DNA of 64,000 nucleotides from an uncultured Gemmatimonadales bacterium (GCA_963708135.1 OY970192.1:3040001-3104000); one strand, 5' to 3'. Positions 27,860 to 44,454 are shown, counted from the stretch's first letter. Numbers and translations: made by a program. Notes: generated by a model from the letters alone, not told the origin.

Positions 27860-27935
27860 GCTGCGGGTGGAGGGGGCGCTTGCGGACGCCCTCGCCCACG
27901 AATGGGCGCACAACGGCGCCGAGGACGCCGCTTAC

Positions 27936-27987
27936 CGAAATTCGCCAAGTACGCGCCATCACGAAATTCGTAAACTGAACGTTATCT
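27936..27987 (+). other. Putative attI-like site
   Basis: First cassette starts at GTTATCT (27981) after TAAACTGAAC with no preceding attC hairpin; direct repeat CGAAATTCG at 27936 and 27962. Confidence 0.65.
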
Positions 27988-28356
27988 GGAATGCGCTGGA
28001 GCGCTGAACAGCAATGATGTGCTCCGCCGCCCCGCCCCGGTTCCAGCGGCTTTGCGTTCGCGGTGCGATCGACGTCCCCGGCCGGGACGGGTCGGACCGA
28101 CAGGAGCTGGTGAGTCGCCGTGCTTGCGCCGGCTGCGGTTCGGCAGCGAGAGAGATTAGGGGCGTCGCCGTCGACTTTCGACCGTTCCAGGGTTGCACGG
28201 CTTCGGCCGGACAGGAGAGGCGCACTCCAGATAACAGAGCGGTGACCGCTGCGCCGCCTGGGCGGCTTGCCCGCCGGGGGAGCGGTGGCGGCGTTTAGCA
28301 ACACAACATGGGCCGGCGGGACACGGCGCTGCGCGCCGCGTCGGTAACCGCGAAAC
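27981..28356 (+). repeat. ORF-less cassette type A, copy 1
   Basis: 376 bp; GTTATCTGGAATGCGC...GCGCACTCCAGATAAC plus attC-like site. Confidence 0.9.
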
Positions 28357-28363
28357 GTTATCT
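28229..28363 (+). other. attC-like site, family 1 (representative; specific to ORF-less cassettes)
   Basis: AGATAAC-agaGCGGTGACCG...GGGACACGGCGCtgcGCGCCGCGTCGGTAACCGCgaaac-GTTATCT. Confidence 0.85.
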
Positions 28364-28732
28364 GGAATGCGCTGGAGCGCTGAACAGCAATGATGTGCTC
28401 CGCCGCCCCGCCCCGGTTCCAGCGGCTTTGCGTTCGCGGTGCGATCGACGTCCCCGGCCGGGACGGGTCGGACCGACAGGAGCTGGTGAGTCGCCGTGCT
28501 TGCGCCGGCTGCGGTTCGGCAGCGAGAGAGATTAGGGGCGTCGCCGTCGACTTTCGACCGTTCCAGGGTTGCACGGCTTCGGCCGGACAGGAGAGGCGCA
28601 CTCCAGATAACAGAGCGGTGACCGCTGCGCCGCCTGGGCGGCTTGCCCGCCGGGGGAGCGGTGGCGGCGTTTAGCAACACAACATGGGCCGGCGGGACAC
28701 GGCGCTGCGCGCCGCGTCGGTAACCGCGAAAC
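28357..28732 (+). repeat. ORF-less cassette type A, copy 2
   Basis: Tandem copy, apparently identical to 27981-28356. Confidence 0.9.
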
Positions 28733-28750
28733 GTTAGAAGACATGCCGGG

Positions 28751-28782
28751 TTGACGGGCGGTGGTACTGAGTACTATAGTAC
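28751..28782 (+). promoter_or_regulatory. Cassette-internal promoter/operator of a TA module
   Basis: TTGACG-N18-TATAGT overlapping the perfect palindrome GTACTATAGTAC. Confidence 0.6.
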
Positions 28783-28818
28783 GGAGGACGTTGAAGCCGG
28801 GAGGCTCGTATCGAATTC

Positions 28819-29139
28819 GTGGCAACCCGCAGCTTCGAGAGCTCCGCGAAGAAGCTCCTGTCCGAAGAGGACCGGAGGCAGCTTGAGTTGCTCCTGCTGG
28901 GAGATCCACGACATGGCAAGGTGATTGAGCGCACTGGCGGTTTCCGGAAGGTGCGCTTCGCTCGACCCAGCCGGCGTGAAGGGAAGAGCGGCGGTACTCG
29001 GGTGATCTACTATCTCCTCGATCGACGTGACCGGATCTACCTGCTCCTCGTGTACGCGAAGGGGGTGAAGGACACCCTCACCCGCACCGAGGAGAACGAA
29101 CTTCGGAAGCTGGCAAAGGCATTGGAGGAAGAACGGTGA
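28819..29139 (+). CDS. RelE/HigB-family toxin
   Basis: GKVIERTGGFRKVRFA...GKSGGTRVIYY...IYLLLVYAKGVKDTLT. Confidence 0.88.
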   Translation: MATRSFESSAKKLLSEEDRRQLELLLLGDPRHGKVIERTGGFRKVRFARPSRREGKSGGTRVIYYLLDRRDRIYLLLVYAKGVKDTLTRTEENELRKLAKALEEER

Positions 29140-29516
29140 CCAAGGCACGGAGGAAGGGTACGTTCGGGCAGGTGCTCATCGAGTCCGCAAGAGAGGCGGT
29201 GCAGATCGAGCGCGGTGAGGCACCCCCGGCTCGTGTCACCAAGCACACGGCTGCGGAAACGAGGGTGGCACCTCCGCCTCAATACGTGCCGGAACGTATC
29301 AAGGGAATCCGGGATGTCATGGCATTGTCCCAGCCTGTCTTCGCTGCGGCCTTGAATGTGAGTCCAGAGACAGTCCGCGCTTGGGAACAGGGGAAGAGGG
29401 AACCCGACGGCCCTACGCTTCGACTCCTCAAGGTAGCGGAGCAGCACCCCGAGGTGCTCCTTACAAAAGTGCGGGCCCGAAGGTCGAGGAAACGGCCCAG
29501 CGCCGAGATCCGGTAA
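29136..29516 (+). CDS. HTH (XRE/HigA-like) antitoxin
   Basis: LSQPVFAAALNVSPETVRAWEQGKREPDGP; 4-nt overlap with the toxin. Confidence 0.88.
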   Translation: MTKARRKGTFGQVLIESAREAVQIERGEAPPARVTKHTAAETRVAPPPQYVPERIKGIRDVMALSQPVFAAALNVSPETVRAWEQGKREPDGPTLRLLKVAEQHPEVLLTKVRARRSRKRPSAEIR

Positions 29517-29558
29517 CGTGCCTTGGAATGACGCGGTCAGCGTCATGGCCGGCACGTC

Positions 29559-29673
29559 TTCTAACACACGGTGAGCGCCTGCGCGGCTTCGCTCCGGCCC
29601 TTCGGGACACCGAATCCTCAGCGCCGCGTTGCGGCGCCACCGGTTCGGCGTCGCTCACCTGGAAACGTTATCC
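29559..29673 (+). other. attC-like site, family 2 (representative)
   Basis: TTCTAAC-acacGGTGAGCG...GGGACACCGAATC...GGTTCGGCGTCGCTCACC-tggaaac-GTT. Confidence 0.85.
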
Positions 29674-30043
29674 GGAATGCGCTGGTGCGCTGGGGAGTGA
29701 ACCTCTTGTTCCCCTCCCCGCCCCGGATCCAGCGGTTTCGCGGGACCGGTGCAATCGATGATCCTGGCACACCGGGTTCGCGAGGCAGCAGCTGGTGAGG
29801 CGCCGGGCGCATCGTTCCTGTATCCGCGGCGTCGAGAGCCCGGCCGGAGTCGAAGCGTTTGTCGGCGCTGAGTTCCGGGCCGCGCCCGCCTTCCGCTGGA
29901 GGCGGAGGGGCGCACTCCGGATAACAGAGCGGTGGCCGCTGCGCCGCCTTCAGCGGCTTGCCCGCCGGGTGAAGTGAAGTCGTAGGCTGAGAACACGGGC
30001 CGGCGGGACGCGGCGCTGGGGGCCGCGTCGGCAACCGCCAGAC
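29667..30043 (+). repeat. ORF-less cassette type B, copy 1
   Basis: 377 bp; GTTATCCGGAATGCGC...GCGCACTCCGGATAAC. Confidence 0.9.
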
Positions 30044-30420
30044 GTTATCTGGAATGCGCTGGAGCGCTGAACAGCAATGATGTGCTCCGCCGCCCCGCCC
30101 CGGTTCCAGCGGCTTTGCGCTCGCGGTGCGATGGACGTTGACGGGCCGGGATGCGTCAGAGGAGGCAGGAGCTGGTGAGGCGCCGTGCGTCGGCCCGCCG
30201 GTGCGGTTCGGCAGCGGGGCACGTGCAGGTCGCCGGCGGCGAGTTGCGACCGTTCCAGAGTGCACGGCTGTGGCAGGACGCGAGAGGCGCACTGCAGATA
30301 ACGGAGCGGTGACCGCTGCGCCGCCTTCGGCGGCTCGCCCGCCGGGTGAAGTGAAGTCCAAGCCCGAAAAGATGGGCCGGCGGGACACGGCGCTGCGCGC
30401 CACGTCGGTAACCGAGAGAC
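30044..30420 (+). repeat. ORF-less cassette type C, copy 1
   Basis: 377 bp; first ~75 nt shared with type A, then diverges. Confidence 0.9.
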
Positions 30421-30797
30421 GTTATCTGGAATGCGCTGGAGCGCTGAACAGCAATGATGTGCTCCGCCGCCCCGCCCCGGTTCCAGCGGCTTTGCGTTCG
30501 CGGTGCGATCGACGTCCCCGGCCGGGACGGGTCGGACCGACAGGAGCTGGTGAGTCGCCGTGCTTGCGCCGGCTGCGGTTCGGCAGCGAGAGAGATTAGG
30601 GGCGTCGCCGTCGAACTTTCGACCGTTCCAGGGTTGCACGGCTTCGGCCGGACAGGAGAGGCGCACTCCAGATAACAGAGCGGTGACCGCTGCGCCGCCT
30701 GGGCGGCTTGCCCGCCGGGGGAGCGGTGGCGGCGTTTAGCAACACAACATGGGCCGGCGGGACACGGCGCTGCGCGCCGCGTCGGTAACCGCGAAAC
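30421..30797 (+). repeat. ORF-less cassette type A, copy 3
   Basis: 377 bp; 1-nt insertion relative to copy 1. Confidence 0.9.
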
Positions 30798-31154
30798 GTT
30801 ATCTGGAATGCGCTGGAGCGCCAAACAGCTGATGTGGTCCCCGCCCCGCCCGGTTCCAGCGGCTTTGCGCTCGCGGTGCGATGGACGTTACGGGCCGGGA
30901 TGCGTCCGAGGGGGCAGGAGCTGGTGAGGCGCCGTGCGTCAGCCCCGCCGGTGCGGTTCGGCGGCGGGGCACCTGCAGGTCGCCGGCGGCGAGTTGCGGC
31001 CATTACAGAGTGCACGGCTGTGGCAGGACGGGAGAGGCGCACTCCAGATAACGGAGCGGTGACCGCTGCGCGCTTGGCGGCTGCGCGGGTGAAGTGAAGT
31101 CAAGCGAAACGAGGGGGCGGGACACGGCGCTGCGCGCCGCGTCGGTAACGAAAC
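30798..31154 (+). repeat. ORF-less cassette type C, divergent copy
   Basis: 357 bp with many small deletions relative to 30044-30420. Confidence 0.8.
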
Positions 31155-31531
31155 GTTATCTGGAATGCGCTGGAGCGCTGAACAGCAATGATGTGCTCCG
31201 CCGCCCCGCCCCGGTTCCAGCGGCTTTGCGTTCGCGGTGCGATCGACGTCCCCGGCCGGGACGGGTCGGACCGACAGGAGCTGGTGAGTCGCCGTGCTTG
31301 CGCCGGCTGCGGTTCGGCAGCGAGAGAGATTAGGGGCGTCGCCGTTGAACTTTCGACCGTTCCAGGGTTGCACGGCTTCGGCCGGACAGGAGAGGCGCAC
31401 TCCAGATAACAGAGCGGTGACCGCTGCGCCGCCTGGGCGGCTTGCCCGCCGGGGGAGCGGTGGCGGCGTTTAGCAACACAACATGGGCCGGCGGGACACG
31501 GCGCTGCGCGCCGCGTCGGTAACCGCGAAAA
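31155..31531 (+). repeat. ORF-less cassette type A, copy 4
   Basis: Matches type A; downstream GTT core is missing (CGCGAAAAAACCGCCAT). Confidence 0.85.
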
Positions 31532-31595
31532 AACCGCCATGTTCCGCTCGGCCTTTTGTAGCAGATTTGGGGTGATAACGACAAAGGGAGATTCC

Positions 31596-32100
31596 ATGGC
31601 GAGCGTACGATCGAGGAACTGCTGAAGTTGTGTGGGGAGCGAATCCAGCTGGTCGAAGATCTCTGGGATAGCATGCTGGGACGGAGGGATTTCCGCTCTG
31701 AGGCACAGAAGGCCGAGCTGGATCGCCGGTTAGAGGAGCACAGGGCGGATACGGATAGCGGTGCCTGGGAAGAGGTTCGTGAGCGGCTGTACAAGAAGTA
31801 CGGGTGAGTAGCGAGTTCGTTGTCCGCCTCAGGCAGAAGCAGAACTAGATGAGGCTGCGGCTTGGTATTCTGAGCGTTCGAGGGGATTGGGAGCAGAGTT
31901 CGTTCGAATAGTCGATGCCGCGTTCGCGGCGATACAGAGAAATCCGCTACAGTTTACAGTTGTACACAGACAAGTGCGGCGGGCGGTGCTTAGAAGATTT
32001 CGATACGAAGTTCTCTACAAAGAATAAGAAAAGGAGATAGTTGTGCTTAAGGTCTAACACTAGAGGAGTGATAAGAAGAGATGGCAGAGAAGAGGCTGAG
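31596..32100 (+). pseudogene. Addiction-module antitoxin plus ParE-like toxin, frameshifted
   Basis: Fragments ERIQLVEDLWDS, EAQKAELDRRLEEH, WEEVRERL; AELDEAAAWYSERSRGLGAEF...IQRNPLQF...VRRAVLRRF. Confidence 0.7.
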
Positions 32101-32327
32101 GGACTACAGGTGCAGACAGAACAAGGCGGTTAACAAACGGTTGGCGCCTGCGCGGCCTGCGGCCGCTCCGGAGAACGCGCCGCGGCGGTCTAGAAGCTGG
32201 TGAGGGATCGTGTAGTTTCGAAGGTGGTCGCGCGCTGAGGGTTATAGGCGCGGCGGGTCGCCAACCTGGAAACGTTATCTGCCAGCCCTTGGGATGCTTG
32301 AGGCATGTAAGATCCTTGAGGAGAGCC

Positions 32328-32773
32328 ATGAAGACCTACGAGATTCACCGTCGTCATAGAGCGGGACGAAGATGGCCGATTTGTGAGCTATCGTGACTGC
32401 GACTTTGCAGGGCTGCTACACGGAAGGCGATACGGAGCGAGAGGCTACGTGATCTGATTGAGGCGCGATCCGGCTTCACCTTGAGGATCGACTCGAGCGA
32501 GGATGAGCAATCCACCAGGAGGTGGGCAGCACGAGGGTACGGATCGCGGTATGACGCGCCTGCCTTCCATGACCGCGCAGAAGATGGTGCGAGCTCTTGG
32601 AGCGGCATGGCTTTGAGCGAGTTCGGCAATCAGGATCCACACCTCATCCTCCGCCACACGGTACGGACGCCGCGTCACCGTCCCCGTGCATAAGTCCAAG
32701 GACCTCGGTCGCGAGTCTTCTAGAGCCGGATCAAGAAAGGTACGCGTACCTCTCGATAGAAGACCTCTAATAG
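32328..32773 (+). pseudogene. Indel-ridden copy of the hicB-hicA cassette at 40798
   Basis: Colinear with 40856-41292 but with many 1-2 nt indels. Confidence 0.8.
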
Positions 32774-33014
32774 GTCGAACGGGCCGGCGTTTAACTAACG
32801 TTTGGCGCCTGCGCGGCCTGCGGCCGCTCCGGAGAACCCGCCGCGGCCGCCGGGAAGCTGGTGCGTTTCGTAGAGGTTTCGAAGGTGATCGCGCGCTGGA
32901 GGTTGTTGCGCGGCGGGTCGCTAACCTAGAAACGTTATGCGATCATTGCCTCGGGTTGGTGGTGCAGACGCCCTCGCCGGTTGTGATCATGTCAGGTATG
33001 ACATAGATTGAACC

Positions 33015-33365
33015 GTGAGATCGAGCGAGAAGCCGCTGGTCTGGATGCATGGGGAGGTCAAGACGCCTCCCTTCAGCGTAGGCGCGCGAATCGAGGCCGG
33101 GGTCCTGTTGCGGCGACTACAGAACGGCGAAACGCTTGGGCTGCCGCACTCTCGACCGATGCCGGTGATCGGCTCCCAATGTCACGAACTACGGATTCGA
33201 GACGAGGATCACACGTGGCGGATCATTTACCGGATCGATCCCGATGCGATCGTGATCGCGGAGGTGTTCAGCAAGAAGACTCAGCAGACGCCCAGGGCCA
33301 CGATCGAGGTGTGCAAGAGGCGGCTGAAGGCGTACGATCGGATAGACGAGGAGCAGGATGGATAA
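33015..33365 (+). CDS. RelE/ParE-superfamily (Gp49-like) toxin
   Basis: KPLVWMHGEVKTPPFS...LPHSRPMPVIGSQCHELRI...WRIIYR...FSKKTQQTP. Confidence 0.85.
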   Translation: MRSSEKPLVWMHGEVKTPPFSVGARIEAGVLLRRLQNGETLGLPHSRPMPVIGSQCHELRIRDEDHTWRIIYRIDPDAIVIAEVFSKKTQQTPRATIEVCKRRLKAYDRIDEEQDG

Positions 33366-33804
33366 GGGAAAGAGGAAGAGGCTCGAGGCGGCTGGTTGGA
33401 AGGTTGGCTCTGCCGAGGAGTTCCTGAACCTCGACGACGCTGAGGCGGCGTTCGTCGCGCTCAAACTCCGCCTGAGCGAGGAGCTGCGGGAGCGGCGAAC
33501 GAAGGAGGGATTGTCGCAAGTCGAGCTGGCGAAGCGGATTGGTTCGAGTCAGTCCCGAGTTGCGAAGATGGAGGCGAGTGATCCCACAGTGTCCGTGGAT
33601 CTGCTCCTGAAGGGGTTGTTCGCGACGGGCGCGACCCAGGATGAAATTGGTGGAGCGATCGCGAAGGGTCGCCGAGGCGTGCAGGCACGGCAGGCGCCCG
33701 AGGCAACGCGGCATAACAAGACGGTTACCGCGGCGGCGCACCTGCGGTGCGCCTTGCCCTCCGCTTCGCTCCGGGACGCCTCGCCTTCGGCTCGGTGTCG
33801 GTAA
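33358..33804 (+). CDS. XRE-family HTH antitoxin (3' end runs into the attC; true end uncertain)
   Basis: KRLEAAGWKVGSAEEFL...LSQVELAKRIGSSQSRVAKMEASDPTVSVDLL. Confidence 0.8.
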   Translation: MDKGKRKRLEAAGWKVGSAEEFLNLDDAEAAFVALKLRLSEELRERRTKEGLSQVELAKRIGSSQSRVAKMEASDPTVSVDLLLKGLFATGATQDEIGGAIAKGRRGVQARQAPEATRHNKTVTAAAHLRCALPSASLRDASPSARCR

Positions 33805-33886
33805 CGCTGAAACGTTATCCGGCATGTTCCAGGCAGCGCTTCTGTAGCAGATAGAGTTAGGGAGAACGCCGGACGAAGGAGGTCGC

Positions 33887-34360
33887 GTGTCGAAGGTTCC
33901 GATCAAGGAGCTGCTGGAGCTGTCGGTGGCAGAACGGATCAGCTCATATGACTGTGGGAGAGAGAGGTCGCTGACTCGGAGGGGGTCTCGATCAGTGAGG
34001 CTCAGTTGCAGGAAGCTCGGCGTGTATGGAGGAGCATTGTGCGGATCGGGCTCGCGATCTGGGAGCAGCTTCGGCGGGAGTTGTGAGAGAGATACGGATG
34101 AACGGGAGTTGATGTTGGTTTTGGCGCGTTGGATGTGCTGGAGGCGATAGAGTGGTACTCGGGTAGATAGAGATGGCGCTGAATTGTGCGAGTGCTTGAT
34201 GCTGCGTTGAATAGATTCAGCAGAATTGGCTTAGTTTCAGTGGTGGACGCTTGATTGGAAGCTGGTGCTCGTTCTACAAGATTGTTTACGGCTGACGAAC
34301 GAGAGATTGTGATTCTGTGGTTTTATGTGAGAGAGATAAGGCACTGGAGAGGTGGAAGTG
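33887..34360 (+). pseudogene. Heavily degraded addiction-module antitoxin plus ParE-like toxin
   Basis: MSKVPIKELLELSVAERI start, then fragmentary similarity to the 31596 module. Confidence 0.55.
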
Positions 34361-34519
34361 AGGAGCTCAGGGTGAGGTTGAACACGCGGATAACAAACGG
34401 TTGGCGCTGCGCGGTTGCGGCGCTCGGAGAATGCGCAGCGTCTGGAAGCTGGTGAGGTGATGCAGTTTCGAAGGCATGGCGCGCTGAAGGTATGGCGCGG
34501 CGGATCGCTAACTGGAAAC

Positions 34520-34892
34520 GTTATCGGAATGCGCTGGTGCGCTGGGGAGTGAACCTCTTGTTCCCCTCCCCGCCCGGATCCAGCGGTTTCGCGGGACCGG
34601 TGCGATCGATGATCTTGGCACACCGGGTTCGGAGGCAGCAGCTGGTGAGGCGCTGGGCGCATGTTCCTGTATCCGCGGCGTCGAGAGCTCGGCCGGAGTC
34701 GAAGCGTTTGTCGGCGCTGAGTTCCGGGCCGCGCTCGCCTTCCGCTGGAGGCGGAGGGGCGCACTCCGGATAACAGAGCGGTGGCCGCTGCGCCGCCTTC
34801 AGCGGCTTGCCCGCCGGGTGAAGTGAAGTCGTAGGCTGAGAACACGGGCTGGCGGGACGCGGCGCTGGGGGCCGCGTCGGCAACCGCCAGAC
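34520..34892 (+). repeat. ORF-less cassette type B, copy 2
   Basis: 373 bp, near-identical to 29667-30043. Confidence 0.88.
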
Positions 34893-34944
34893 GTTATAGG
34901 ACATTTTCCACGTTGGTCTCCCATCTGAGCAAGGAAAGTCATCG

Positions 34945-35736
34945 ATGGCTTTGAAACCCTGTCGCGAGTGCTCGCATAAGATCAGCACCGAGGCCAATTC
35001 ATGCCCGAATTGCGGAGCTAAAAATCCGACAGGATCGAGAATCTCCGCGAAACAGGGATGCCTCGGCTGCCTAGGACTAATCGTTCTTATGGTCATTATG
35101 ACGTCTCTAATCAATACGTGCGGGTCCGGTTCCACCCCGTCATCAAGCGTGATGTCGCACTCTAGAGTGAACCCGTCGGTCAATCCCGACAGTGTTTGGG
35201 CCGCCGGTAATGCCTCACAATTAGGCTCACTGTCTCGACGCGATTCAATGAGGTATGACCATATCACACGCACGACTGGCCTCACGCCAGCTGAGCCCAA
35301 ATTCCATGAACGCGTTGTCGCGATGCGAATTGCAGACGCGCGAGACGCGTCGAAGCGTCCTGAATCCAGGGGAGACGCGTTGACCTTCCTATCACTTGCA
35401 GACACTCCATTTACTTCCACACAATCCGCCGCGATCAAGTCTTTGCGCACATTGATATCGGCGTCTATAGATCGTGACACTAGGAAGGCGGGCATCCCGC
35501 TTCGCCGCGCCTATGCGGCGACGTTGAGAAACAAATTTCTCGACGACGCTCTTGATATTAAGGTTTCCGCACTCGGCGACGACGCGACTACGCTGAAACT
35601 TGAATTCGTCCTGTTCAATGACGTGTGGAGTCACAAGCTAGTAACCGGGGAGTTCCAGCAGTTGCTTCGCCAGATGGGATTCAAGCGGCTTCGGATGACG
35701 GACGGGTACGACTGGGGATACTACTGGGATCTATAG
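34945..35736 (+). CDS. Zinc-ribbon domain membrane protein (cassette gene)
   Basis: MALKPCRECSHKISTEANSCPNCG then a TM helix; lower GC than the flanks. Confidence 0.8.
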   Translation: MALKPCRECSHKISTEANSCPNCGAKNPTGSRISAKQGCLGCLGLIVLMVIMTSLINTCGSGSTPSSSVMSHSRVNPSVNPDSVWAAGNASQLGSLSRRDSMRYDHITRTTGLTPAEPKFHERVVAMRIADARDASKRPESRGDALTFLSLADTPFTSTQSAAIKSLRTLISASIDRDTRKAGIPLRRAYAATLRNKFLDDALDIKVSALGDDATTLKLEFVLFNDVWSHKLVTGEFQQLLRQMGFKRLRMTDGYDWGYYWDL

Positions 35737-35919
35737 CCGGCCACGCGAGACATTCGCACGATGGAAAACGTCCTATAACTGGACAATTGCCGCAGAGCCC
35801 GCCGGGATTGAGACCACGCGGCATTTAATAGGTAGGCCGGACGGGACATGACTCCGCTCAGGCGCGAGATCGCGTTGCTCACTCGCTTCCTCGCTGCGTC
35901 ACGTCGGCAATCGCTTAAC

Positions 35920-36297
35920 GTTATCTGGAATGCGCTGGAGCGCTGAACAGCAATGATGTGCTCCGCCGCCCCGCCCCGGTTCCAGCGGCTTTGCGCTCGA
36001 GGTGCGATGGACGTTGACGGGCCGGGATGCGTCAGAGGAGGCAGGAGCTGGTGAGGCGCCGTGCGTCGGCCCCGCCGGTGCGGTTCGGCAGCGGGGCACG
36101 TGCAGGTCGCCGGCGGCGAGTTGCGACCGTTCCAGAGTGCACGGCTGTGGCAGGACGCGAGAGGCGCACTCCAGATAACGGAGCGGTGACCGCTTCGCCG
36201 CCTTCGGCGGCTCGCCCGCCGGGTGAAGTGAAGTCCAAGCCCGAAAAGATGGGCCGGCGGGACACGGCGCTGCGCGCCACGTCGGTAACCGAGAGAC
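35920..36297 (+). repeat. ORF-less cassette type C, copy 3
   Basis: 378 bp. Confidence 0.9.
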
Positions 36298-36336
36298 GTT
36301 ACGCGCCATACTGCGGGTGAAAAGTGGGGTCTTACA

Positions 36337-37038
36337 TTGAGCAACTGGTATCACCTGTACTGCGATGAGACGGGTATCGGGTCTGGACCGTCGTTCGATC
36401 TTGGTGCGCTCCAGATGTCGCCAGCACGAGCCCGGATCCTTGCGGAAGGGCTATTGCGGGTCCGTCACGAATACGGGCTCCGAGCCGAGATGAAGTGGAC
36501 GAAGGTATCTCTTGGGATGCTGGATGCGTACAAGGCCTTCGTGGATGTATTCCTGAACTGCCAGTACACGAGGCTCTATCACCTCAAAGTCCGCAAGCGC
36601 CACGATTGGACGGCGTTTGGCCGATCTGAGAATGCACGCTTCTTCAAGGCCTACTACGTTTTCCTGAGAATGCACATGCGGTCGCATTCGCGATATGTGG
36701 TGCAGGTGGATGACAAGCCAGGCAAGCGATATCGCTGGAGCCAGGTCTACTACGCCATCAACGCCGCGGCCGCTCGTGATTACGGAGTGACGCGGAAGCA
36801 GATTGCGGACTTCCGGCCGATGGATTCCAAGAGATCGGACCTGCTGCAGCTCGTGGATGTTGTGCTGGGTGCTATGACGTCGGTTGCTTCGGCCCCAGCG
36901 AAGCTGAATCTTCTCACCTATGTGCGGGATCGTGTTGCCTCAAGGGAGGCGGAGGTGAAGAGCGGCGAGTGGTCACCTACAGTGGTCGCCAAGTCCTCCT
37001 CGGCACTGGGAAGTCGTACGGCGCGTAACAAACGGTGA
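36337..37038 (+). CDS. DUF3800-like protein (cassette gene)
   Basis: YHLYCDETG, EMKWTKVS, DSKRSDLLQLVDVVLGA; stop lies inside the attC. Confidence 0.78.
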   Translation: MSNWYHLYCDETGIGSGPSFDLGALQMSPARARILAEGLLRVRHEYGLRAEMKWTKVSLGMLDAYKAFVDVFLNCQYTRLYHLKVRKRHDWTAFGRSENARFFKAYYVFLRMHMRSHSRYVVQVDDKPGKRYRWSQVYYAINAAAARDYGVTRKQIADFRPMDSKRSDLLQLVDVVLGAMTSVASAPAKLNLLTYVRDRVASREAEVKSGEWSPTVVAKSSSALGSRTARNKR

Positions 37039-37149
37039 GCGCCTGCGCAGCTCCGCTGCTTCGGCCCTGCGGGACACCCGCCTCCGGCGGGCGTCGCTCA
37101 CCTAAGAACGTTATCTGACATGAGCCGCACGACGTGATTAGATTGGCGG

Positions 37150-37428
37150 ATGAGCCCGAGCGAGCGATTCGAGCGACCCGAGTGGTGGGAGTGGGAGCTC
37201 GCGTTCACGGCTCACGTCGAAGCACGCATGGAGGAGCGTGGATTCTCCGAGGTCGATCTGCGCGAGATGCTCGAGGATGCATTGGATCTGGAGCAGAGCC
37301 GGAATCCGAGGCGGTGGCTGGTCCGCACCCGCTCGGGCGGCGCGCCGTGGATCGTCGTGGTTGAGCCCGATCCTGATGAACAGGTGCTTCTGATCGTCAC
37401 CGCTTACCTTCGAGACGCCCGCCGATGA
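37150..37428 (+). CDS. DUF4258-like putative toxin
   Basis: FTAHVEARMEERGFS...LLIVTAY. Confidence 0.75.
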   Translation: MSPSERFERPEWWEWELAFTAHVEARMEERGFSEVDLREMLEDALDLEQSRNPRRWLVRTRSGGAPWIVVVEPDPDEQVLLIVTAYLRDARR

Positions 37429-37694
37429 AAACTCTCACCGTCCAAGTGACCTACCGCAAAGGCGAGCCCTTTGCCGCCTACATTTACCTGGCTGCGAAGC
37501 CGGGCCAGAAGAGTGCACGGACCGAAGACGTCAGTCCCGACCTCGTCATCGACTACGCGGCCGATGGCACCCCGCTCGGGATTGAAATCGTTTCGCCGGG
37601 ATTCGTCACCCTCGACGAAATCCACGCCGTCTTCGACCGACTCGGCCTGGGACGCCCGGAACCATCGGAATTGGCGCCGCTCAGGGCGGCCTGA
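37425..37694 (+). CDS. DUF2283-like putative antitoxin
   Basis: AAYIYL...SARTEDVSPDLVIDYAADGTPLGIEI; ATGA overlap. Confidence 0.78.
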   Translation: MKTLTVQVTYRKGEPFAAYIYLAAKPGQKSARTEDVSPDLVIDYAADGTPLGIEIVSPGFVTLDEIHAVFDRLGLGRPEPSELAPLRAA

Positions 37695-37846
37695 CTTCCC
37701 CAGCGGGTGGGCCAGCCCCGGCAGCGGCTCACATCAGATAACAAACGGTGAGCGCCTGCGCGGCTTCGCCGCTCCGGCCCTTCGGGACACCGAATCCTCA
37801 GCGCCGCGCTGCGGCGCCTCCGGTTCGGCGTCGCTCACCTACAAGC

Positions 37847-38224
37847 GTTATCTGGAATGCGCTGGAGCGCTGAACAGCAATGATGTGCTCCGCCGCCCCG
37901 CCCCGGTTCCAGCGGCTTTGCGCTCGCGGTGCGATGGACGTTGACGGGCCGGGATGCGTCAGAGGAGGCAGGAGCTGGTGAGGCGCCGTGCGTCGGCCCC
38001 GCCGGTGCGGTTCGGCAGCGGGGCACGTGCAGGTCGCCGGCGGCGAGTTGCGACCGTTCCAGAGTGCACGGCTGTGGCAGGACGCGAGAGGCGCACTCCA
38101 GATAACGGAGCGGTGACCGCTTCGCCGCCTTCGGCGGCTCGCCCGCCGGGTGAAGTGAAGTCCAAGCCCGAAAAGATGGGCCGGCGGGACACGGCGCTGC
38201 GCGCCACGTCGGTAACCGAGAGAC
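37847..38224 (+). repeat. ORF-less cassette type C, copy 4
   Basis: 378 bp, near-identical to 35920-36297. Confidence 0.9.
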
Positions 38225-38283
38225 GTTATGTGAAATCGCCCGGAGGCCGCTGAACCCGCTGCGGTTGAGAGACCCCACCTGAC

Positions 38284-38316
38284 TTGTCGTAGCATGGGTG
38301 CCGTGCTATCATGCTA
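38284..38316 (+). promoter_or_regulatory. higBA promoter with operator inverted repeat
   Basis: TTGTCG-N17-TATCAT; TAGCATG...CATGCTA inverted repeat. Confidence 0.7.
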
Positions 38317-38317
38317 G

Positions 38318-38611
38318 ATGATTCGATCATTCCGGGATGCGGCGACCGAGGATCTGTTCTACGGTCGTTCGACGAAGGCAGCTCGGAAAGCGCTTCCACT
38401 GTCGCTGTGGCAGAAGGCGTCGGTGAAGCTCGATGCGGTCGACTCGGCCGGGATGTTGGACGACCTACGAGTTCCGCCAGGGAATCGATTGGAAGCCTTG
38501 AAGGGAGATCGTCGCGGTCAGCACAGCATCCGAATCAACAGCCAGTACCGGATCTGTTTTCGATGGACGGACGCAGGACCGGAAGACGTAGAAGTCGTCG
38601 ACTACCATTGA
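38318..38611 (+). CDS. higB: HigB toxin
   Basis: MIRSFRD...DLRVPPGNRLEALKGDRRGQHSIRINSQYRICFRW...VEVVDYH. Confidence 0.93.
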   Translation: MIRSFRDAATEDLFYGRSTKAARKALPLSLWQKASVKLDAVDSAGMLDDLRVPPGNRLEALKGDRRGQHSIRINSQYRICFRWTDAGPEDVEVVDYH

Positions 38612-38619
38612 GGCATACT

Positions 38620-38946
38620 ATGGTCCGAGTACCGACCCATCGCCGACCGACGCACCCGGGGGAGATGCTCCTCGAGGAGTTTCTCGGCCCGATGGAGCTG
38701 ACGCAGCGGGAGCTTGCCGACGCGATCGCAGTCCCGTATCAGCGGGTCAACGAGATCGTGAACGGACGACGGGGAGTGACCCCGAGCACTGCACTGCGGC
38801 TATCGACCTACTTCGGCACGTCGACGGACTTCTGGATGAACCTTCAGCTGCGATGGGATCTGTACCACGCTCGAGAGGCCGAGGCCGACATCTTGAAGAA
38901 GATTCCTCGATACAAGTCTTCGAATCGCGACAGAGTAGGCGGATAG
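38620..38946 (+). CDS. higA: HigA antitoxin
   Basis: PTHPGEMLLEEFL...RVNEIVNGRRGVTPSTALRLS...FWMNLQ. Confidence 0.93.
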   Translation: MVRVPTHRRPTHPGEMLLEEFLGPMELTQRELADAIAVPYQRVNEIVNGRRGVTPSTALRLSTYFGTSTDFWMNLQLRWDLYHAREAEADILKKIPRYKSSNRDRVGG

Positions 38947-39152
38947 CACGATTGAAGCCGGGCAGAGGGGCGACTTCACATAACACACGGTGAGCGGCTA
39001 AGCGGCGTTCGCCGCTACGCCCCTACGGGACACCCCCCATGCGGCGGGCGTCGCTCACCTGGAAACGTTAGAAGACATGCCGGGTTGACGGGCGGTGGTA
39101 CTGAGTACTATAGTACGGAGGACGTTGAAGCCGGGAGGCTCGTATCGAATTC

Positions 39153-39473
39153 GTGGCAACCCGCAGCTTCGAGAGCTCCGCGAAGAAGCTCCTGTCCGAA
39201 GAGGACCGGAGGCAGCTTGAGTTGCTCCTGCTGGGAGATCCACGACATGGCAAGGTGATTGAGCGCACTGGCGGTTTCCGGAAGGTGCGCTTCGCTCGAC
39301 CCAGCCGGCGTGAAGGGAAGAGCGGCGGTACTCGGGTGATCTACTATCTCCTCGATCGACGTGACCGGATCTACCTGCTCCTCGTGTACGCGAAGGGGGT
39401 GAAGGACACCCTCACCCGCACCGAGGAGAACGAACTTCGGAAGCTGGCAAAGGCATTGGAGGAAGAACGGTGA
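39153..39473 (+). CDS. RelE/HigB-family toxin, duplicate of 28819
   Basis: Identical translation. Confidence 0.88.
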   Translation: MATRSFESSAKKLLSEEDRRQLELLLLGDPRHGKVIERTGGFRKVRFARPSRREGKSGGTRVIYYLLDRRDRIYLLLVYAKGVKDTLTRTEENELRKLAKALEEER

Positions 39474-39850
39474 CCAAGGCACGGAGGAAGGGTACGTTCG
39501 GGCAGGTGCTCATCGAGTCCGCAAGAGAGGCGGTGCAGATCGAGCGCGGTGAGGCACCCCCGGCTCGTGTCACCAAGCACACGGCTGCGGAAACGAGGGT
39601 GGCACCTCCGCCTCAATACGTGCCGGAACGTATCAAGGGAATCCGGGATGTCATGGCATTGTCCCAGCCTGTCTTCGCTGCGGCCTTGAATGTGAGTCCA
39701 GAGACAGTCCGCGCTTGGGAACAGGGGAAGAGGGAACCCGACGGCCCTACGCTTCGACTCCTCGAGGTAGCGGAGCAGCACCCCGAGGTGCTCCTTACAA
39801 AAGTGCGGGCCCGAAGGTCGAGGAAACGGCCCAGCGCCGAGATCCGGTAA
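39470..39850 (+). CDS. HTH antitoxin, duplicate of 29136
   Basis: One residue differs (LLKV vs LLEV). Confidence 0.88.
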   Translation: MTKARRKGTFGQVLIESAREAVQIERGEAPPARVTKHTAAETRVAPPPQYVPERIKGIRDVMALSQPVFAAALNVSPETVRAWEQGKREPDGPTLRLLEVAEQHPEVLLTKVRARRSRKRPSAEIR

Positions 39851-40038
39851 CGTGCCTTGGAATGACGCGGTCAGCGTCATGGCCGGCACGTCTTCTAACA
39901 CACGGTGAGCGCCTGCGCGGCTTCGCTCCGGCCCTTCGGGACACCGAATCCTCAGCGCCGCGTTGCGGCGCCACCGGTTCGGCGTCGCTCACCTGGAAAC
40001 GTTATGTGAAATGGCGCTGGCGTTGGTAGATTGAGAGC

Positions 40039-40326
40039 ATGAGCAACGAACTGAGGCAGCTCCAGGAGCGGATCACCCCCAAGCTGCGTGAGCACGGCGT
40101 CGTCAAAGCCGCCGTGTTCGGCTCCCGCGCTCGCGGGGATGCCGGACCCGAGAGCGATCTCGATCTCCTGGTCGAGTTCGAGAAAGGTCGAACGCTCCTG
40201 GACCTCATCGGCCTTGAGCAGGATCTCACGGAGCTGCTCGGGACCGAGACGGAGGTGGTCACCTACCGATCGCTGCATCCGCTCCTGCGGGAGCGAATCC
40301 TCGCCGACCAGGTGCCGCTCCTGTGA
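40039..40326 (+). CDS. Minimal nucleotidyltransferase (MNT) antitoxin
   Basis: VFGSRARGDAGPESDLDLLVEF. Confidence 0.9.
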   Translation: MSNELRQLQERITPKLREHGVVKAAVFGSRARGDAGPESDLDLLVEFEKGRTLLDLIGLEQDLTELLGTETEVVTYRSLHPLLRERILADQVPLL

Positions 40327-40667
40327 AGGATCCGGACGTCTTACCCTATCTCGCTCATGTCCTCGAGAGCATCGAGGCGATCGAACGGTACACGCGCGGG
40401 ATGGAGGCGGCGGCATTCCTCAACGATTCCCAAGCACAGGATGCCGTCGTTCGGCGCCTCGAGATCATCGGCGAGGCTGTGAAGAACGTCGGCCCGGAGT
40501 TCCGGGCGGCGCATCCAGAGATTCCGTGGAAGCGTATCGCCGGACTTCGAGACGTCCTAATTCACCGCTACTTCGAGGTGGATCTTGAACTGACGTGGGA
40601 GACGGTTCAAGAGCGGCTCCCGACGTTCAAACAACAGGTCCAGGCGCTTCTCCAGCAGTTGGGCTGA
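40323..40667 (+). CDS. HEPN (DUF86) toxin
   Basis: DAVVRRLEIIGEA...IPWKRIAGLRDVLIHRYF (Rx4H). Confidence 0.9.
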   Translation: MKDPDVLPYLAHVLESIEAIERYTRGMEAAAFLNDSQAQDAVVRRLEIIGEAVKNVGPEFRAAHPEIPWKRIAGLRDVLIHRYFEVDLELTWETVQERLPTFKQQVQALLQQLG

Positions 40668-40855
40668 ACCCGGACGGCGCCACTTCACATAACAACCGGT
40701 GAGCGCCTTCGCGGCTTCGCCGCTCCGGCCCTTCGGGACACCGAATCCTCAGCGCCGCGATGCGGCGCCTCCGGTTCGGCGTCGCTCACCTAGAAACGTT
40801 ATCCGCCAGCCCTTGGGATGCTATCTTGTAGGCATCAAGATCCTTGAGGAGCGCC

Positions 40856-41077
40856 ATGAAGACCTACGAGTTCACCGTCGTCATCGAGCGGGACGAAGAT
40901 GGCCGATTTGTGGCTATCGTACCCGCTTTGCAGGGCTGCTACACGGAAGGCGAAACGGAGCGAGAGGCTCGGGATCTCATCGAGGACGCGATCCGGCTTC
41001 ACCTTGAGGATCGACTCGAGCGAGGAGAAGCAATCCACCAGGAGGTGGGCAGCACGAGGGTACGGATCGCGGTATGA
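40856..41077 (+). CDS. hicB: HicB-family antitoxin
   Basis: FTVVIERDEDGRFVAIVPALQGCYTEGET. Confidence 0.88.
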   Translation: MKTYEFTVVIERDEDGRFVAIVPALQGCYTEGETEREARDLIEDAIRLHLEDRLERGEAIHQEVGSTRVRIAV

Positions 41078-41292
41078 ACCCGCGCCTGCCTTCCATGACC
41101 GCGCCAGAAGTGGTGCGGCTCCTGGAGCGGCATGGCTTTGAGCGAGTTCGGCAATCAGGATCCCACCTCATCCTCCGCCACACGGACGGACGCCGCGTCA
41201 CCGTCCCCGTGCATAAGTCCAAGGACCTCGGTCGCGGTCTTCTGAGCCGGATCATGAAGGACGCGGACCTCTCGATAGAAGACCTCAAATAG
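41074..41292 (+). CDS. hicA: HicA-family toxin
   Basis: LERHGFERVRQSGSHLIL...VTVPVH..KDLGRGLL. Confidence 0.9.
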   Translation: MNPRLPSMTAPEVVRLLERHGFERVRQSGSHLILRHTDGRRVTVPVHKSKDLGRGLLSRIMKDADLSIEDLK

Positions 41293-41446
41293 GTCGAACG
41301 GGCCGGCGGATAACAAACGGTTGGCGCCTGCGCGGCCTGCGGCCGCTCCGGAGAACCCGCCGCGGCCGCCTGGAAGCTGGTGCGGTTCGTGAGGTTTCGA
41401 AGGTGATCGCGCGCTGGAGGTTGTTGCGCGGCGGGTCGCCAACCTA

Positions 41447-42617
41447 GTGTAGTGTCTGCCAATTGAGTTGATTTAACAAGACTCCGAGCGTACTGCGGTG
41501 AGCGCCTCGCGTGCACGCTGGATCTTGCGCAAGATGTCCTCGCCTTTGGCTCGCCACCGGTACGGCTTGGGATGGAGCTTTCGTTCGGCCAAGTAGCTCT
41601 CGATGTCACTCACCAGCTCGCGTACGCTGGAGAAGCTGCCCTCCCGAATCACGTCCTGCGTCAGCTCTCCGAAGAAGCGCTCGACGAGATTCAACCAGGA
41701 CGAGCTGGTCGGCGTGAAGTGAAGGTGGAAGCGCGGATGCTTCGCAAGCCACTGGGTTACGCTCTCTTGCTTGTGCGTGCAGTAATTGTCCACGACGAGG
41801 TGTAGATCGAGATCCTTGGGCGTCTCCCGATCGATCTGCTTGAGGAAGCGAAGCCACTCGACGTGCGTGTGACGCTCTTCCGTGCGCGCGATCAATTTGC
41901 CGTCGAGGTAGTTCAGTGCAGCAAACAGCGTGATGGTGCCGTGGCGGGTGTAGTCGTGGGTCTTGGTGCGAATCTCCCCGACGCCGAGGGGTAAGCCCGG
42001 TTGGGTGCGCTCCAAGGCCTGGCACTGGCTCTTCTCGTCACAACACAGGACCAGCGCCCTCTCGGGCGGATCGAGATACAGCCCGATCACGTCCCAGAAC
42101 TTCTCCTCGAAGCGCGGATCGTTCGACAGCTTGAACGTCTGCGTCAGGTGCGGCTTGATCTCGTTTGCCCGCCAGATCCGGTGCACGCTGTCCGGCGAGA
42201 TCCCGACCTCACGGGCCATTGTGCGCACACTCCAACGCGTGCACGGCTTGGGCGGCCGAGTCGCCCGCGTGATGACCTGCTCCACCTTGTGCGCCGGGAT
42301 CGAGGGGCGCCGGCCCCGTCCTTTTCGATCCTTCAGGCCGTCCAGGCCTTCGCGCTCGAAGCGTTGGGACCACTTGTTGACGCACGCGGCGCTCACGCCC
42401 AGCTCCCGCGCCACCTGCACCTGGCCGAGACCGCGCCCGCGCCGCAGCACGATGGCGGCACGAAGGCTGTCGCGCTTGGACACGCTGGGCGCCTTCACAC
42501 GCCGCTCAAGCTCTTGCCGTTCGGCGTCGGTGATCTCGATCTTGGACACAGGTCGCGCCATGGCGCAAGGATACGCCCGGCGCCTCCTTGTGTCAAGCTA
42601 TTTGTCGGACGCTACAC
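41447..42617 (-). mobile_element. IS630-family insertion sequence inside an attC-like site
   Basis: TIRs GTGTAGTGTCTGCCAA / TTGTCGGACGCTACAC; TA duplication at 41445-46 and 42618-19 (CTAG target). Confidence 0.92.
41473..42561 (-). CDS. IS630-family transposase
   Basis: HTH N-terminus; DDE motifs CCDEKSQ, VVDNYCTH, FTPTSSSWLNLVERFF. Confidence 0.93.
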   Translation of the reverse strand: MARPVSKIEITDAERQELERRVKAPSVSKRDSLRAAIVLRRGRGLGQVQVARELGVSAACVNKWSQRFEREGLDGLKDRKGRGRRPSIPAHKVEQVITRATRPPKPCTRWSVRTMAREVGISPDSVHRIWRANEIKPHLTQTFKLSNDPRFEEKFWDVIGLYLDPPERALVLCCDEKSQCQALERTQPGLPLGVGEIRTKTHDYTRHGTITLFAALNYLDGKLIARTEERHTHVEWLRFLKQIDRETPKDLDLHLVVDNYCTHKQESVTQWLAKHPRFHLHFTPTSSSWLNLVERFFGELTQDVIREGSFSSVRELVSDIESYLAERKLHPKPYRWRAKGEDILRKIQRAREALTAVRSESC

Positions 42618-42624
42618 TAGAAAC

Positions 42625-43000
42625 GTTATCCGGAATGCGCTGGTGCGCTGAAGAGCAAGCGTGGGTGCCCCCCCTGCCACCCCGAGCCGGCGGTTTTTGC
42701 GCTCGCGGGCGTAGTGGACAATCGCGGCCGGGAGACTTCGCTGGACAGGGTGCTGGTCGGGCCGCCATGCGCTGCCAAGCCCGCTCGAGGAGTCGGTGTG
42801 CCAGGCAGGCGCCGCGCTGCTGGTGAGGCCGGTGCGGTTTCGAAGGAGCGCATGGCTGCTGCCGGCCGGGGGGGCGCACTCCGGATAACAGCGCGGTGAC
42901 CGCTGCGCCGCCTTGCCCGCCCGAAAGCGTGCAGGGACTGTGATCAGGAACTTGGGCCGGCGGGACACGGCGCTGCGCGCCGCGTCGGGCACCGCTGAAC
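42625..43000 (+). repeat. ORF-less cassette type D (most divergent)
   Basis: 376 bp; same termini and family-1 attC, different interior. Confidence 0.85.
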
Positions 43001-43377
43001 GTTATCCGGAATGCGCTGGCGCGCTGGGGAGTGAACCTGTTGTTCCCCTCCCCGCCCCGGATCCAGCGGTTTCGCGGGACCGGTGCAATCGATGATCCTG
43101 GCACACCGGGTTCGCGAGGCAGCAGCTGGTGAGGCGCCGGGCGCATTGTTCCTGTATCCGCGGCGTCGAGAGCCCGGCCGGAGTCGAAGCGTTTGTCGGC
43201 GCTGAGTTCCGGGCCGCGCCCGCCTTCCGCTGGAGGCGGAGGGGCGCACTCCGGATAACAGAGCGGTGGCCGCTGCGCCGCCTTCAGCGGCTTGCCCGCC
43301 GGGTGGAGTGAAGTCGTAGGCCGAGAACACGGGCCGGCGGGACGCGGCGCTGGGCGCCGCGTCGGCAACCGCCAGAC
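43001..43377 (+). repeat. ORF-less cassette type B, copy 3
   Basis: 377 bp, a few substitutions. Confidence 0.9.
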
Positions 43378-43444
43378 GTTAAGTGCCATCACGTGGGTTC
43401 GCCTCATGCATTAGATTGGGGCGGTTACCAACGGGAGGACTTCG

Positions 43445-43651
43445 ATGAAGTATCGGGTGCTAATCGAGCAGGACGAGGACGGGTTCTTCGTGGCCGAGGT
43501 GCCGGCGCTCCCAGGGTGTGTGAGCCAGGGTGAGACTCGGCAGGAGGCGCTTGAGAACATCCGAGAGGCGATCGCGGGCTATCTGGAGAGCCTCGAGGAT
43601 CACCAGGAACCGGTGCCTCCCTCGATTCACGAGGAGATCGTGGAGGTCTAG
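43445..43651 (+). CDS. hicB: HicB-family antitoxin
   Basis: MKYRVLIEQDEDGFFVAEVPALPGCVSQGETRQEAL. Confidence 0.9.
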   Translation: MKYRVLIEQDEDGFFVAEVPALPGCVSQGETRQEALENIREAIAGYLESLEDHQEPVPPSIHEEIVEV

Positions 43652-43876
43652 GTGGCCGAACTGCCAGTCGTCTCAGGACGCGAGGCAGTGAAGGCGTTCG
43701 GCAGGATCGGTTACGTTGTCGATCGCCAGCGAGGAAGTCACATCATACTGAGACAGGCGGAACCCCCTCATCGCCGCCTGACGATTCCGGACCACAAAGA
43801 GCTGCGGAAGGGAACGCTGCGGGCGTTGATCCGACAGGGTGGGTTGTCGGTGGACGAGTTCTTGGCGTTGCTGTAG
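43652..43876 (+). CDS. hicA: HicA-family toxin
   Basis: GYVVDRQRGSHIIL...LTIPDHKELRKGTLRALIRQ. Confidence 0.9.
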   Translation: MAELPVVSGREAVKAFGRIGYVVDRQRGSHIILRQAEPPHRRLTIPDHKELRKGTLRALIRQGGLSVDEFLALL

Positions 43877-43931
43877 GAACAGCAGAACCGCCCGTTCGGT
43901 CAGCGCCCTGGAGCTGGCTGGTCGTGACGGC

Positions 43932-44084
43932 ACTTAACAAACGGTTGGCGCCTGCGCGGCCTGCGGCCGCTCCGGGGAACCCGCCGCGGCCGTGACTAGA
44001 AGCTGGGGAGATCAGGGTAGTTTCGAAGGTGATCTCGGGCTGGAGGTATCGGCGCGGCGGGTCGCCAACCTGGAAACGTTATCC
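43932..44084 (+). other. attC-like site, family 3 (long form, representative)
   Basis: ACTTAAC-aaacGGTTGGCG...ACCCGCCGCG...AAGCTGG...TTTCGAAGG...CGCGGCGGGTCGCCAACC-tggaaac-GTT. Confidence 0.85.
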
Positions 44085-44454
44085 GGAATGCGCTGGTGCG
44101 CTGGGGAGTGAACCTCTTGTTCCCCTCCCCGCCCCGGATCCAGCGGTTTCGCGGGACCGGTGCAATCGATGATCCTGGCACACCGGGTTCGCGAGGCAGC
44201 AGCTGGTGAGGCGCCGGGCGCATCGTTCCTGTATCCGCGGCGTCGAGAGCCCGGCCGGAGTCGAAGCGTTTGTCGGCGCTGAGTTCCGGGCCGCGCCCGC
44301 CTTCCGCTGGAGGCGGAGGGGCGCACTCCGGATAACAGAGCGGTGGCCGCTGCGCCGCCTTCAGCGGCTTGCCCGCCGGGTGAAGTGAAGTCGTAGGCTG
44401 AGAACACGGGCCGGCGGGACGCGGCGCTGGGGGCCGCGTCGGCAACCGCCAGAC
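44078..44454 (+). repeat. ORF-less cassette type B, copy 4
   Basis: 377 bp, apparently identical to 29667-30043. Confidence 0.9.

Follow-up and report, generated by a model that had tools for sequence, protein, structure and literature searches.

A 64,000-nucleotide stretch of the genome of an uncultured Gemmatimonadales bacterium (GCA_963708135.1, OY970192.1:3040001–3104000; hereafter the window, to which positions refer unless stated otherwise) contains thirteen related, gene-less DNA units of about 376 bp. They are best explained as gene-less mobile cassettes of an integron-type array that were amplified by the adjacent recombinase, a reading to which we assign a probability of about 0.55. 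The units have the anatomy of cassettes with their own attC site, lack coding and RNA signals, are restricted to the array, and occur as near-identical copies in different slots. A preliminary description had listed selfish parasites of the recombinase resembling miniature inverted-repeat transposable elements (MITEs) among the possible explanations. The selfish part of this proposal is the best fit to the data, but the MITE-like label is wrong.

The preliminary description had claimed thirteen paralogous units in four subfamilies (A, B, and C with four copies each, D with one), and every one of them was found, starts included. All lie on the plus strand. Subfamily A comprises A1 (27981–28356, 376 bp, slot 1), A2 (28357–28732, 376 bp, slot 2), A3 (30421–30797, 377 bp), and A4 (31155–31530, 376 bp). 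The B copies are located at 29667–30043 (B1, 377 bp), 34520–34892 (B2, 373 bp), 43001–43377 (B3, 377 bp), and 44078–44454 (B4, 377 bp), the C copies at 30044–30420 (C1, 377 bp), 30798–31154 (C2, 357 bp), 35920–36297 (C3, 378 bp), and 37847–38224 (C4, 378 bp), and D1 at 42625–43000 (376 bp). The near-constant length held for 10 of the 13 units (376–378 bp). Exceptions are C2, a diverged copy with deletions in the attC loop, B2, which has four single-base deletions including one of 1 nt in the R′ arm, and A4, which lacks the 3′ crossover. Crossover sites of the type …AC↓GTTA (the arrow marks the crossover) are present at both ends of 12 of the 13 units; at the 3′ end of A4, GAAA↓AAACCGCC is found instead of GAAAC↓GTTA, and the unit is fused to the following cassette. 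The lost crossover lies at 31527–31531 (GAAA↓AAACCGCCATG), and the 5′ end of the fused neighbor resembles the 5′ end of a cassette of a relative, genome G065 (GTTAACCGCCATGTTC).

Identity is 94% to 100% within a subfamily (84% to 86% for C2 against the other C copies) and 56% to 82% between subfamilies. The divergence between subfamilies is unevenly distributed along the unit, with differences at 39% to 48% of the aligned interior positions plus 6–8 indels, at 15% to 25% of the attC interior, and only 0–2 changes in the R arms. A2 is 100% identical to A1, and A3 carries a 1-nt insertion relative to A1, so the copies in slots 1, 2, and 6 differ by a single inserted base. B1 and B4 show no differences, although they are 14 kb apart. 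Subfamily C has a mosaic structure, in which alignment columns 1–77 are A-like, the attC loop is B-like, and the attC 3′ arm is A-like again. Near-identical copies in different slots and the mosaic C subfamily are as expected from recent recombinase-mediated copying and exchange between members.

Each unit consists of a 16-nt R′ arm, a non-coding interior of about 220 nt, and an attC site of about 140 nt. In A1, the R′ arm covers 27981–27996, the interior 27997–28219, and the R″ arm 28220–28235; the attC site as it stands in the array extends from 28220 to 28372. The first 16 nt of the unit (GTTATCYGGAATGCGC) are complementary to GCGCACTCCRGATAAC, located about 140 nt before the unit end, at 94% of the positions, with one constant A/C mismatch that corresponds to a G–T pair on the bottom strand. 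In 10 of the 13 units, the own-end pairing spans 16 nt with at most one mismatch; an additional mismatch occurs in the R″ arm of C1 (CACTGCAG). Seven cassettes outside the family likewise pair with their own ends over 14–18 nt with at most one mismatch. Pairing with the end of a neighboring non-family cassette extends over just 5–10 nt. Judged from this pairing, the conserved termini are the extended R′ and R″ arms of each cassette's own attC site, and the stem would be completed upon circularization at G↓TT. The change from TCTGGA/TCCAGA to TCCGGA/TCCGGA, which had been called compensatory, was confirmed as one T–A to C–G pair in four of nine sequences. It is a covariation within the attC stem, because the termini form the R′/R″ stem of the unit's own site. 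When folded, the attC bottom strand shows a long R stem, a bulged L stem, and a tip that branches (−48.7 and −45.2 kcal/mol). Unusually long R arms are found in the array cassettes generally (27981–52865), where 14–18 nt of the own 5′ end pair with the own R″ flank and an A/C mismatch at position 11 of the top strand (G–T on the bottom strand) is common.

A search of the whole 5.4-Mb genome with A1 yielded 14 matches, all within the array (D1 was found as two pieces). The attC type had been described as private to the family, which applies within this genome; in a relative (G012), however, the same type carries a coding cassette. The resemblance to MITEs is contradicted by the absence of any copy outside the array in the 5.4 Mb, and the terminal inverted repeat is the R stem of attC. 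Since the copies occur solely at attC crossover points of one array, they are ordinary cassettes rather than transposon derivatives.

In the proposed mechanism, the adjacent tyrosine recombinase would cut units out by recombination between two attC sites, and the excised units would go back in at attI. With the donor copy retained through replication, each round could add one copy. The family would thus persist and multiply through its recombination site and not through a product, and its interior would be mostly drifting filler with a small number of conserved islands, of which at least one (in D1) may be derived from attC. Exchange between members would give rise to the mosaic subfamilies. 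Excision, reinsertion, and amplification are deduced here from sequence comparison; the traces related to movement are the near-identical copies in separate slots and alternative cassette joins in the contigs of one DNA sequencing run, possibly of the source sample, that contains the stretch; no RNA run was listed for it.

The same contigs bear on the question of whether the number or order of the copies is an artifact of assembling a repeat-rich region. The genome is metagenome-derived, and the short-word contigs of the run break at repeats and leave bins uncovered; these bins are uninterpretable, as is a joint between 27984 and 32145 with just 21 letters on one side. However, the copies carry diagnostic differences and lie between distinct unique cassettes, independent contigs run over the family at a depth of about 8–9, like the flanks, and collapse or expansion of one repeat cannot yield four subfamilies. 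An assembly artifact is considered very unlikely. In one contig, position 33805 is followed directly by 40793, so that 6,987 nt are missing, and 16 positions differ from the window; this suggests a strain variant with a different cassette order.

The units had been described as free of open reading frames (ORFs), and this was borne out by the lack of a conserved frame. Nearly all interior indels have lengths other than multiples of three (3/4 between A and C, 5/5 between C1 and C2, 3/3 between B1 and B2, 6/6 between A and B). When subfamilies were compared, the synonymous share of changed codons did not exceed 32% in any of the six frames, which is no synonymous excess; the B1–B2 comparison, with about five changed codons, is too small to use. 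Long open frames do occur on both strands, for example of 94 amino acids on the plus strand and 88–151 amino acids on the minus strand, and an ATG at positions 11–13 is conserved, as might be expected if the units encoded a small protein or micropeptide. Such frames are expected at 66% to 70% guanine–cytosine (GC) content, though, and those >150 bp, present by chance in the GC-rich DNA, are not conserved. Reading frames differ between A and C and are not preserved among the B copies or among the C copies either; a minus-strand HQLL motif and the 5′ block fall into different frames in A and C. The conserved ATG lies inside the R′ arm, and its frame ends after 7–8 codons in subfamilies A and B and in most copies of C. 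None of the translations of the 11 longest ORFs matched Pfam at E ≤ 0.1. A coding function is thus largely refuted already and hardly credible. As a by-product of GC-rich DNA, the long open frames should not be annotated as genes in these slots.

A structured RNA or single-stranded DNA family, another of the earlier suggestions, received no support from the tests applied, which have low power with four lineages. Rfam gave no match at gathering thresholds in the 64 kb and, at E ≤ 5 in the region 27.8–31.7 kb, only a chance match to Rubella_3 (E 1.1). Whole-unit RNA folds had z-scores of −0.19, −2.11, and +0.16, and folds of the interior, calculated for both strands with DNA and RNA parameters, ranged from z −2.09 to +1.95. 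RNAalifold on nine sequences returned a covariation term of −1.88 kcal/mol with a single compensatory pair, located in the R stem of attC. The proposed CGCTGG/CCRGCG helix was confirmed as a pairing in all nine sequences tested; five of its six pairs are invariant, and one changes on one side only, from T–A to T–G, which is tolerated on the plus strand only. This change and the islands conserved across the four subfamilies would suit an interior that encodes a small regulatory RNA or acts in cis as an RNA element, and a passage of a review (PMC8876359) reports regulatory RNAs in ORF-less Xanthomonas cassettes. Against this stand the Rfam, folding, and covariation results, the divergence and indels between subfamilies, and the lack of a promoter-like site in a scan of 27700–31700. 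Comparison of the interiors with the rest of the window on both strands gave short matches at E ≥ 0.001 only, and no antisense target was found. Overall, an RNA function appears unlikely.

The earlier statement that no sigma-70 promoter is visible holds for the scan mentioned, which used the sigma-70 consensus only: the one site detected lies in a toxin–antitoxin cassette outside the family. Alternatively, the units might act as promoters for neighboring cassettes or as insulators that keep their expression apart, as has been described for ORF-less Treponema cassettes. The occupation of slots 1 and 2 and the interleaving with coding cassettes would be in accordance with such a role, and a study of the oral metagenome (PMC6557892) reports promoter activity of ORF-less cassettes. 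The family cassettes within the scanned region, however, had no sigma-70-like site, and their interiors are very GC-rich. Four terminator-like matches correspond to the minus-strand L″ hairpin, with 2.9 expected. A role in driving or insulating neighboring genes is accordingly rated as improbable.

The recombinase gene (26828–27859, plus strand, 343 amino acids) is co-directional with the cassettes and encodes an Xer-like tyrosine recombinase with an additional N-terminal part of about 70 amino acids, which is conserved in orthologues and matched no Pfam family. The protein scored 225.5 bits against the NCBIfam model XerA_Arch, above its cut-off of 220. With the integron integrase model TIGR02249, it reached 216.9 bits, under the cut-off of 265, in two stretches that left profile positions 179–234 unmatched; no protein anywhere in the genome exceeded the TIGR02249 cut-off. 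In the comparison with IntI4 (2a3v), residues 237–260 face chain residues 174–239, which leaves about 42 residues fewer at the IntI-specific domain. The same region is absent from all six orthologues tested, which score about 200 bits against TIGR02249. According to a passage in Cury 2016 (10.1101/030866), integron integrases carry this IntI-specific domain of about 35 amino acids near patch III; recombinases without it near attC sites are not counted there as integron integrases and were seen with fewer than three attC sites. By the canonical IntI-based definition of an integron, which rests on this domain, the recombinase falls outside. Among the papers listed in literature searches, none had a title or abstract describing an array system with a recombinase that lacks this domain, although such a description may still exist.

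Of the 72 other genomes of the taxonomic family, 31 contain orthologues of the recombinase (39% to 65% identity; L092–L120), a tally that includes the unpublished G015 and G016. Eleven downstream stretches were inspected, ten beside orthologous recombinases and one at the G012 locus (L084), and seven of them hold attC sites. Three of the other four reach the contig end after 1.6–2.9 kb, and the remaining one lies next to an incomplete recombinase gene. In a wider sample of the phylum, orthologues were found in 15 of 301 genomes (G000 counted), and the attC profiles, applied to the 1.5-kb flanks only, detected a site beside one of 20 loci (L137). More than 7,000 database proteins from several phyla resemble the recombinase at E ≤ 1e-30. 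Genome G297 (contig C1; L141, L144, L146–L150), which belongs to the same taxonomic order, contains seven copies of a 297-amino-acid homologue without the N-terminal part, as if they belonged to a multi-copy element. A recombinase without the IntI-specific region is situated directly upstream of arrays in several genera, where current integron finders would report arrays without an integrase. The surrounding recombinase system may therefore be of greater interest than the cassettes themselves. The only other integrase trace in the genome was found 196 kb upstream of the window (G000:C1:2844087–2844447, L087). The match of its 160-amino-acid ORF to integron integrase models is confined to their C-terminal part, and the IntI-specific region is matched weakly and separately further upstream. 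The locus has the appearance of a canonical intI remnant and adjoins a gene for an ADOP-family permease, which may hint at Acidobacteriota.

The window contains 20 copies of the interior motif GCTGGTGAG, with 0.88 copies expected. Thirteen copies are located in the family and four in the center of attC class III, and these 17 are all on the plus strand. The motif had been described as conserved, which is correct for the 13 family copies, except that D1 has GCTGGTCGG at the homologous position and its perfect copy 67 nt downstream in the 3′ direction. Class III is an attC class of about 165 nt that is kept across genera (53 profile matches at E ≤ 1e-3, up to 168 bits). Its sites in the window end at 32274, 32934, 34520, 44078, 46752, and 47502, and it was also found at the loci L121–L124 and L084. 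The center of an attC site is usually its variable tip. The 53 class III matches lie in arrays of other genera; among the first 40 of them, which were inspected, 13 show CTGGTGAG followed by GTTTCGAA at a distance of 17 nt and one more at 18 nt. The interior of D1 matches the class III center over about 40 nt around 42819–42843 (GCTGGTGAGG-N7-GTTTCGAAGG) and contains the same pair with the same 17-nt spacing (nhmmer 13.1 bits, E 3e-5; best of 300 shuffled interiors 4.0). The D1 interior, at least, hence harbors DNA derived from attC, or it and the class III center share a bound site. The interiors of A, B, and C did not match the class III profile significantly (E 0.45–1.5) and have only the 9-nt motif in common with it. 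The idea that the interior is a decayed attC site was rejected, the class I, II, and III profiles having given this single significant match of D1 among all interiors. By eye, the GCTGGTGAG region also looked similar to the class II L″ box, but this resemblance was without statistical support.

The total length is the second unusual property of the units. In each of the four subfamilies, CCRGCGG lies 62 nt from the start of the unit. The interior measures 238, 242, 242, and 248 nt in A, C, B, and D, respectively, and the attC loop 80, 77, 77, and 70 nt, which results in totals of 376, 377, 377, and 376 bp. When random signs were assigned to the aligned indels, the probability of a net change of at most 1 in either direction was 0.31 for A–C, 0.16 for A–B, and 0.06 for A–D, in a rough test with non-independent pairs. 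The length conservation is modestly above chance and suggests, as far as the alignments go, a constraint on total length. One guess is that a lower size limit for recombination combined with a deletion bias is behind it. Fixed-length spacers, which the preliminary description had named as another possibility, are likewise conceivable.

A motif shared with attC sites and a fixed length could also mean that the cassettes serve recombination. In that case, GCTGGTGAG, together with GTTTCGAA in D1, would be a candidate accessory site for the N-terminal part of the recombinase or for a host factor, and the fixed length would set the geometry of adjacent attC sites, to the benefit of the array or the recombinase. 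The placement and strand of the motif copies, the spaced pair common to class III sites of other genera and D1, the conserved N-terminal part, and the conserved total length are in favor of this idea. However, the motif may be conserved in class III for no other reason than that the sites descend from a common ancestor, the match of A, B, and C to this class is limited to the nine nucleotides, and C2 (357 bp) and B2 (373 bp) show that the length is changeable. We regard a service to recombination as rather unlikely. A broader version of the idea, likewise not very probable, would place the array in a non-canonical, parallel cassette system under an Xer-like recombinase that is without the IntI-specific domain and carries a new, conserved N-terminal part. 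The 376-bp units would then be its most efficient substrates, and their length and the GCTGGTGAG (+GTTTCGAA) module, which also occurs in the tip of the lineage-wide attC class, would reflect the need of this recombinase for an accessory site and a certain geometry.

Several of these results weigh against selfish, recombinase-driven cassettes as the explanation. The domain with which canonical integron integrases recombine attC sites is absent from the recombinase, and the reaction itself is therefore assumed. The contigs of the DNA run cover part of the family, and the copy number is not confirmable from them. A total of 376–377 bp that is held while interior and attC loop shift in opposite directions would not be predicted for pure filler. 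The islands conserved across the four subfamilies and the presence of GCTGGTGAG in the center of class III indicate that selection beyond attC may be possible. Leads are seen in the constraint on length, the motif shared with attC, and the unusual recombinase.

The array itself stands out by its base composition, with a GC content of 58% to 68% inside 28–56 kb of the window and about 70% to 77% outside. It comprises about 30 crossover sites (…AAC↓GTTA), the first of which is located 122 nt past the recombinase gene and the last at position 52865 or beyond. The region from 27860 to 27981 on the plus strand is the putative attI region. As read from the sequence, it ends at the first crossover (…AACTGAAC↓GTTA), where the first R′-type boundary (27981) lies. 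Gene-less cassettes of the family take 13 of roughly the first 27 slots and are interleaved with coding cassettes, whose plus-strand genes encode RelE/HTH (twice), DUF4258/DUF2283, MNT/HepT, HicB/HicA, Unstab_antitox, DUF3800, and subtilase proteins. Such a gene set is usual for chromosomal cassette arrays. The RelE/HTH toxin–antitoxin cassette is present at 28733–29666 and at 39067–40000 (99% identity over the 300 nt compared), and other cassette parts are repeated as well (32464–32554 and 40987–41077, 98%). An insertion sequence at 41445–42610 encodes a DDE_3/IS630-type transposase on the minus strand (41473–42561). It is inserted in the TA of …AACCTAGAAAC↓GTTA and splits the attC site of the HicA cassette directly before D1; the contig depth is about 45 over this element and about 8–10 close by. 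A scan of 26–54 kb of the window for transfer RNA and transfer-messenger RNA genes detected none.

Outside this genome, relatives of the interiors were not found in the collections searched. A DNA search of 60 related genomes gave no interior match; the matches obtained were short and confined to the attC part (query positions 240–373), and seven of the nine loci concerned have no attC-like boundaries. A profile of the 13 units, applied to the 11 downstream stretches, produced 57 matches at E ≤ 1, 54 of which cover attC columns only. The exact 19-nt pattern GGAATGCGCTGGNGCGCTG was present in 45 stretches of species genomes, none of them after GTTATC, and these are therefore chance matches; the exact 19-nt R′-box pattern GTTATCYGGAATGCGCTGG was present in 15 metagenome stretches, in which the similarity ends at 19–37 nt. 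Diverged relatives would escape either pattern. Plasmid and phage collections yielded no match in a distant-mode search. The relative G065 (L122, G065:C2; positions 311–949, 1701, and 8837) possesses another family of short paralogous cassettes, distinct from the present one, which likewise occupies the first two slots. It has three copies of 317 bp (one truncated to 273 bp) and a 321-bp relative, and its R arms also read …CCATGCGC/GCGCAC…. It parallels the 376-bp family in paralogy, shortness, and the occupation of slots 1 and 2, and is likened to it in these respects alone.

Among known systems, amplified gene-less cassettes have already been found in Vibrio, and the present family is a further example outside this genus, that is, another case of cassettes multiplying without a gene. 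Passages in Boucher 2006 (PMC1382264) describe Vibrio arrays with paralogous non-coding cassettes, one family of which has 45 copies in one strain; these families are vibrio-restricted and show no synonymous-site pattern, and a selfish or regulatory role was proposed for them. As far as these passages go, the Vibrio cassettes resemble the 376-bp family in having a normal attC site, no conserved ORF, and many paralogues per array, in the confinement of homologues to a narrow lineage, and in a suspected mosaic evolution or gene conversion. The operational definition used there (no BLASTX match, no ORF >150 bp) does not apply literally to the present units because of the chance ORFs >150 bp in their interiors. 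In contrast to Vibrio, the 376-bp family resides in a host with about 70% GC, has a different attC class, and is adjacent to a recombinase without the IntI-specific region. It is also divided into four subfamilies whose interiors are 39% to 48% apart at a total of 376–377 bp. For some ORF-less cassettes, regulatory RNAs or promoters are reported in PMC8876359 and PMC6557892. The Treponema-type, co-directional integrons treated in the latter (Tansirichaiya 2019) contain ORF-less cassettes too, but these bear promoters, whereas neither a sigma-70-like site nor an AT-rich stretch was found in the 376-bp family. What this family adds to the known cases is a total length kept within 1–2 bp despite opposed changes in its two halves, and a short motif in common with the tip of the main attC class.

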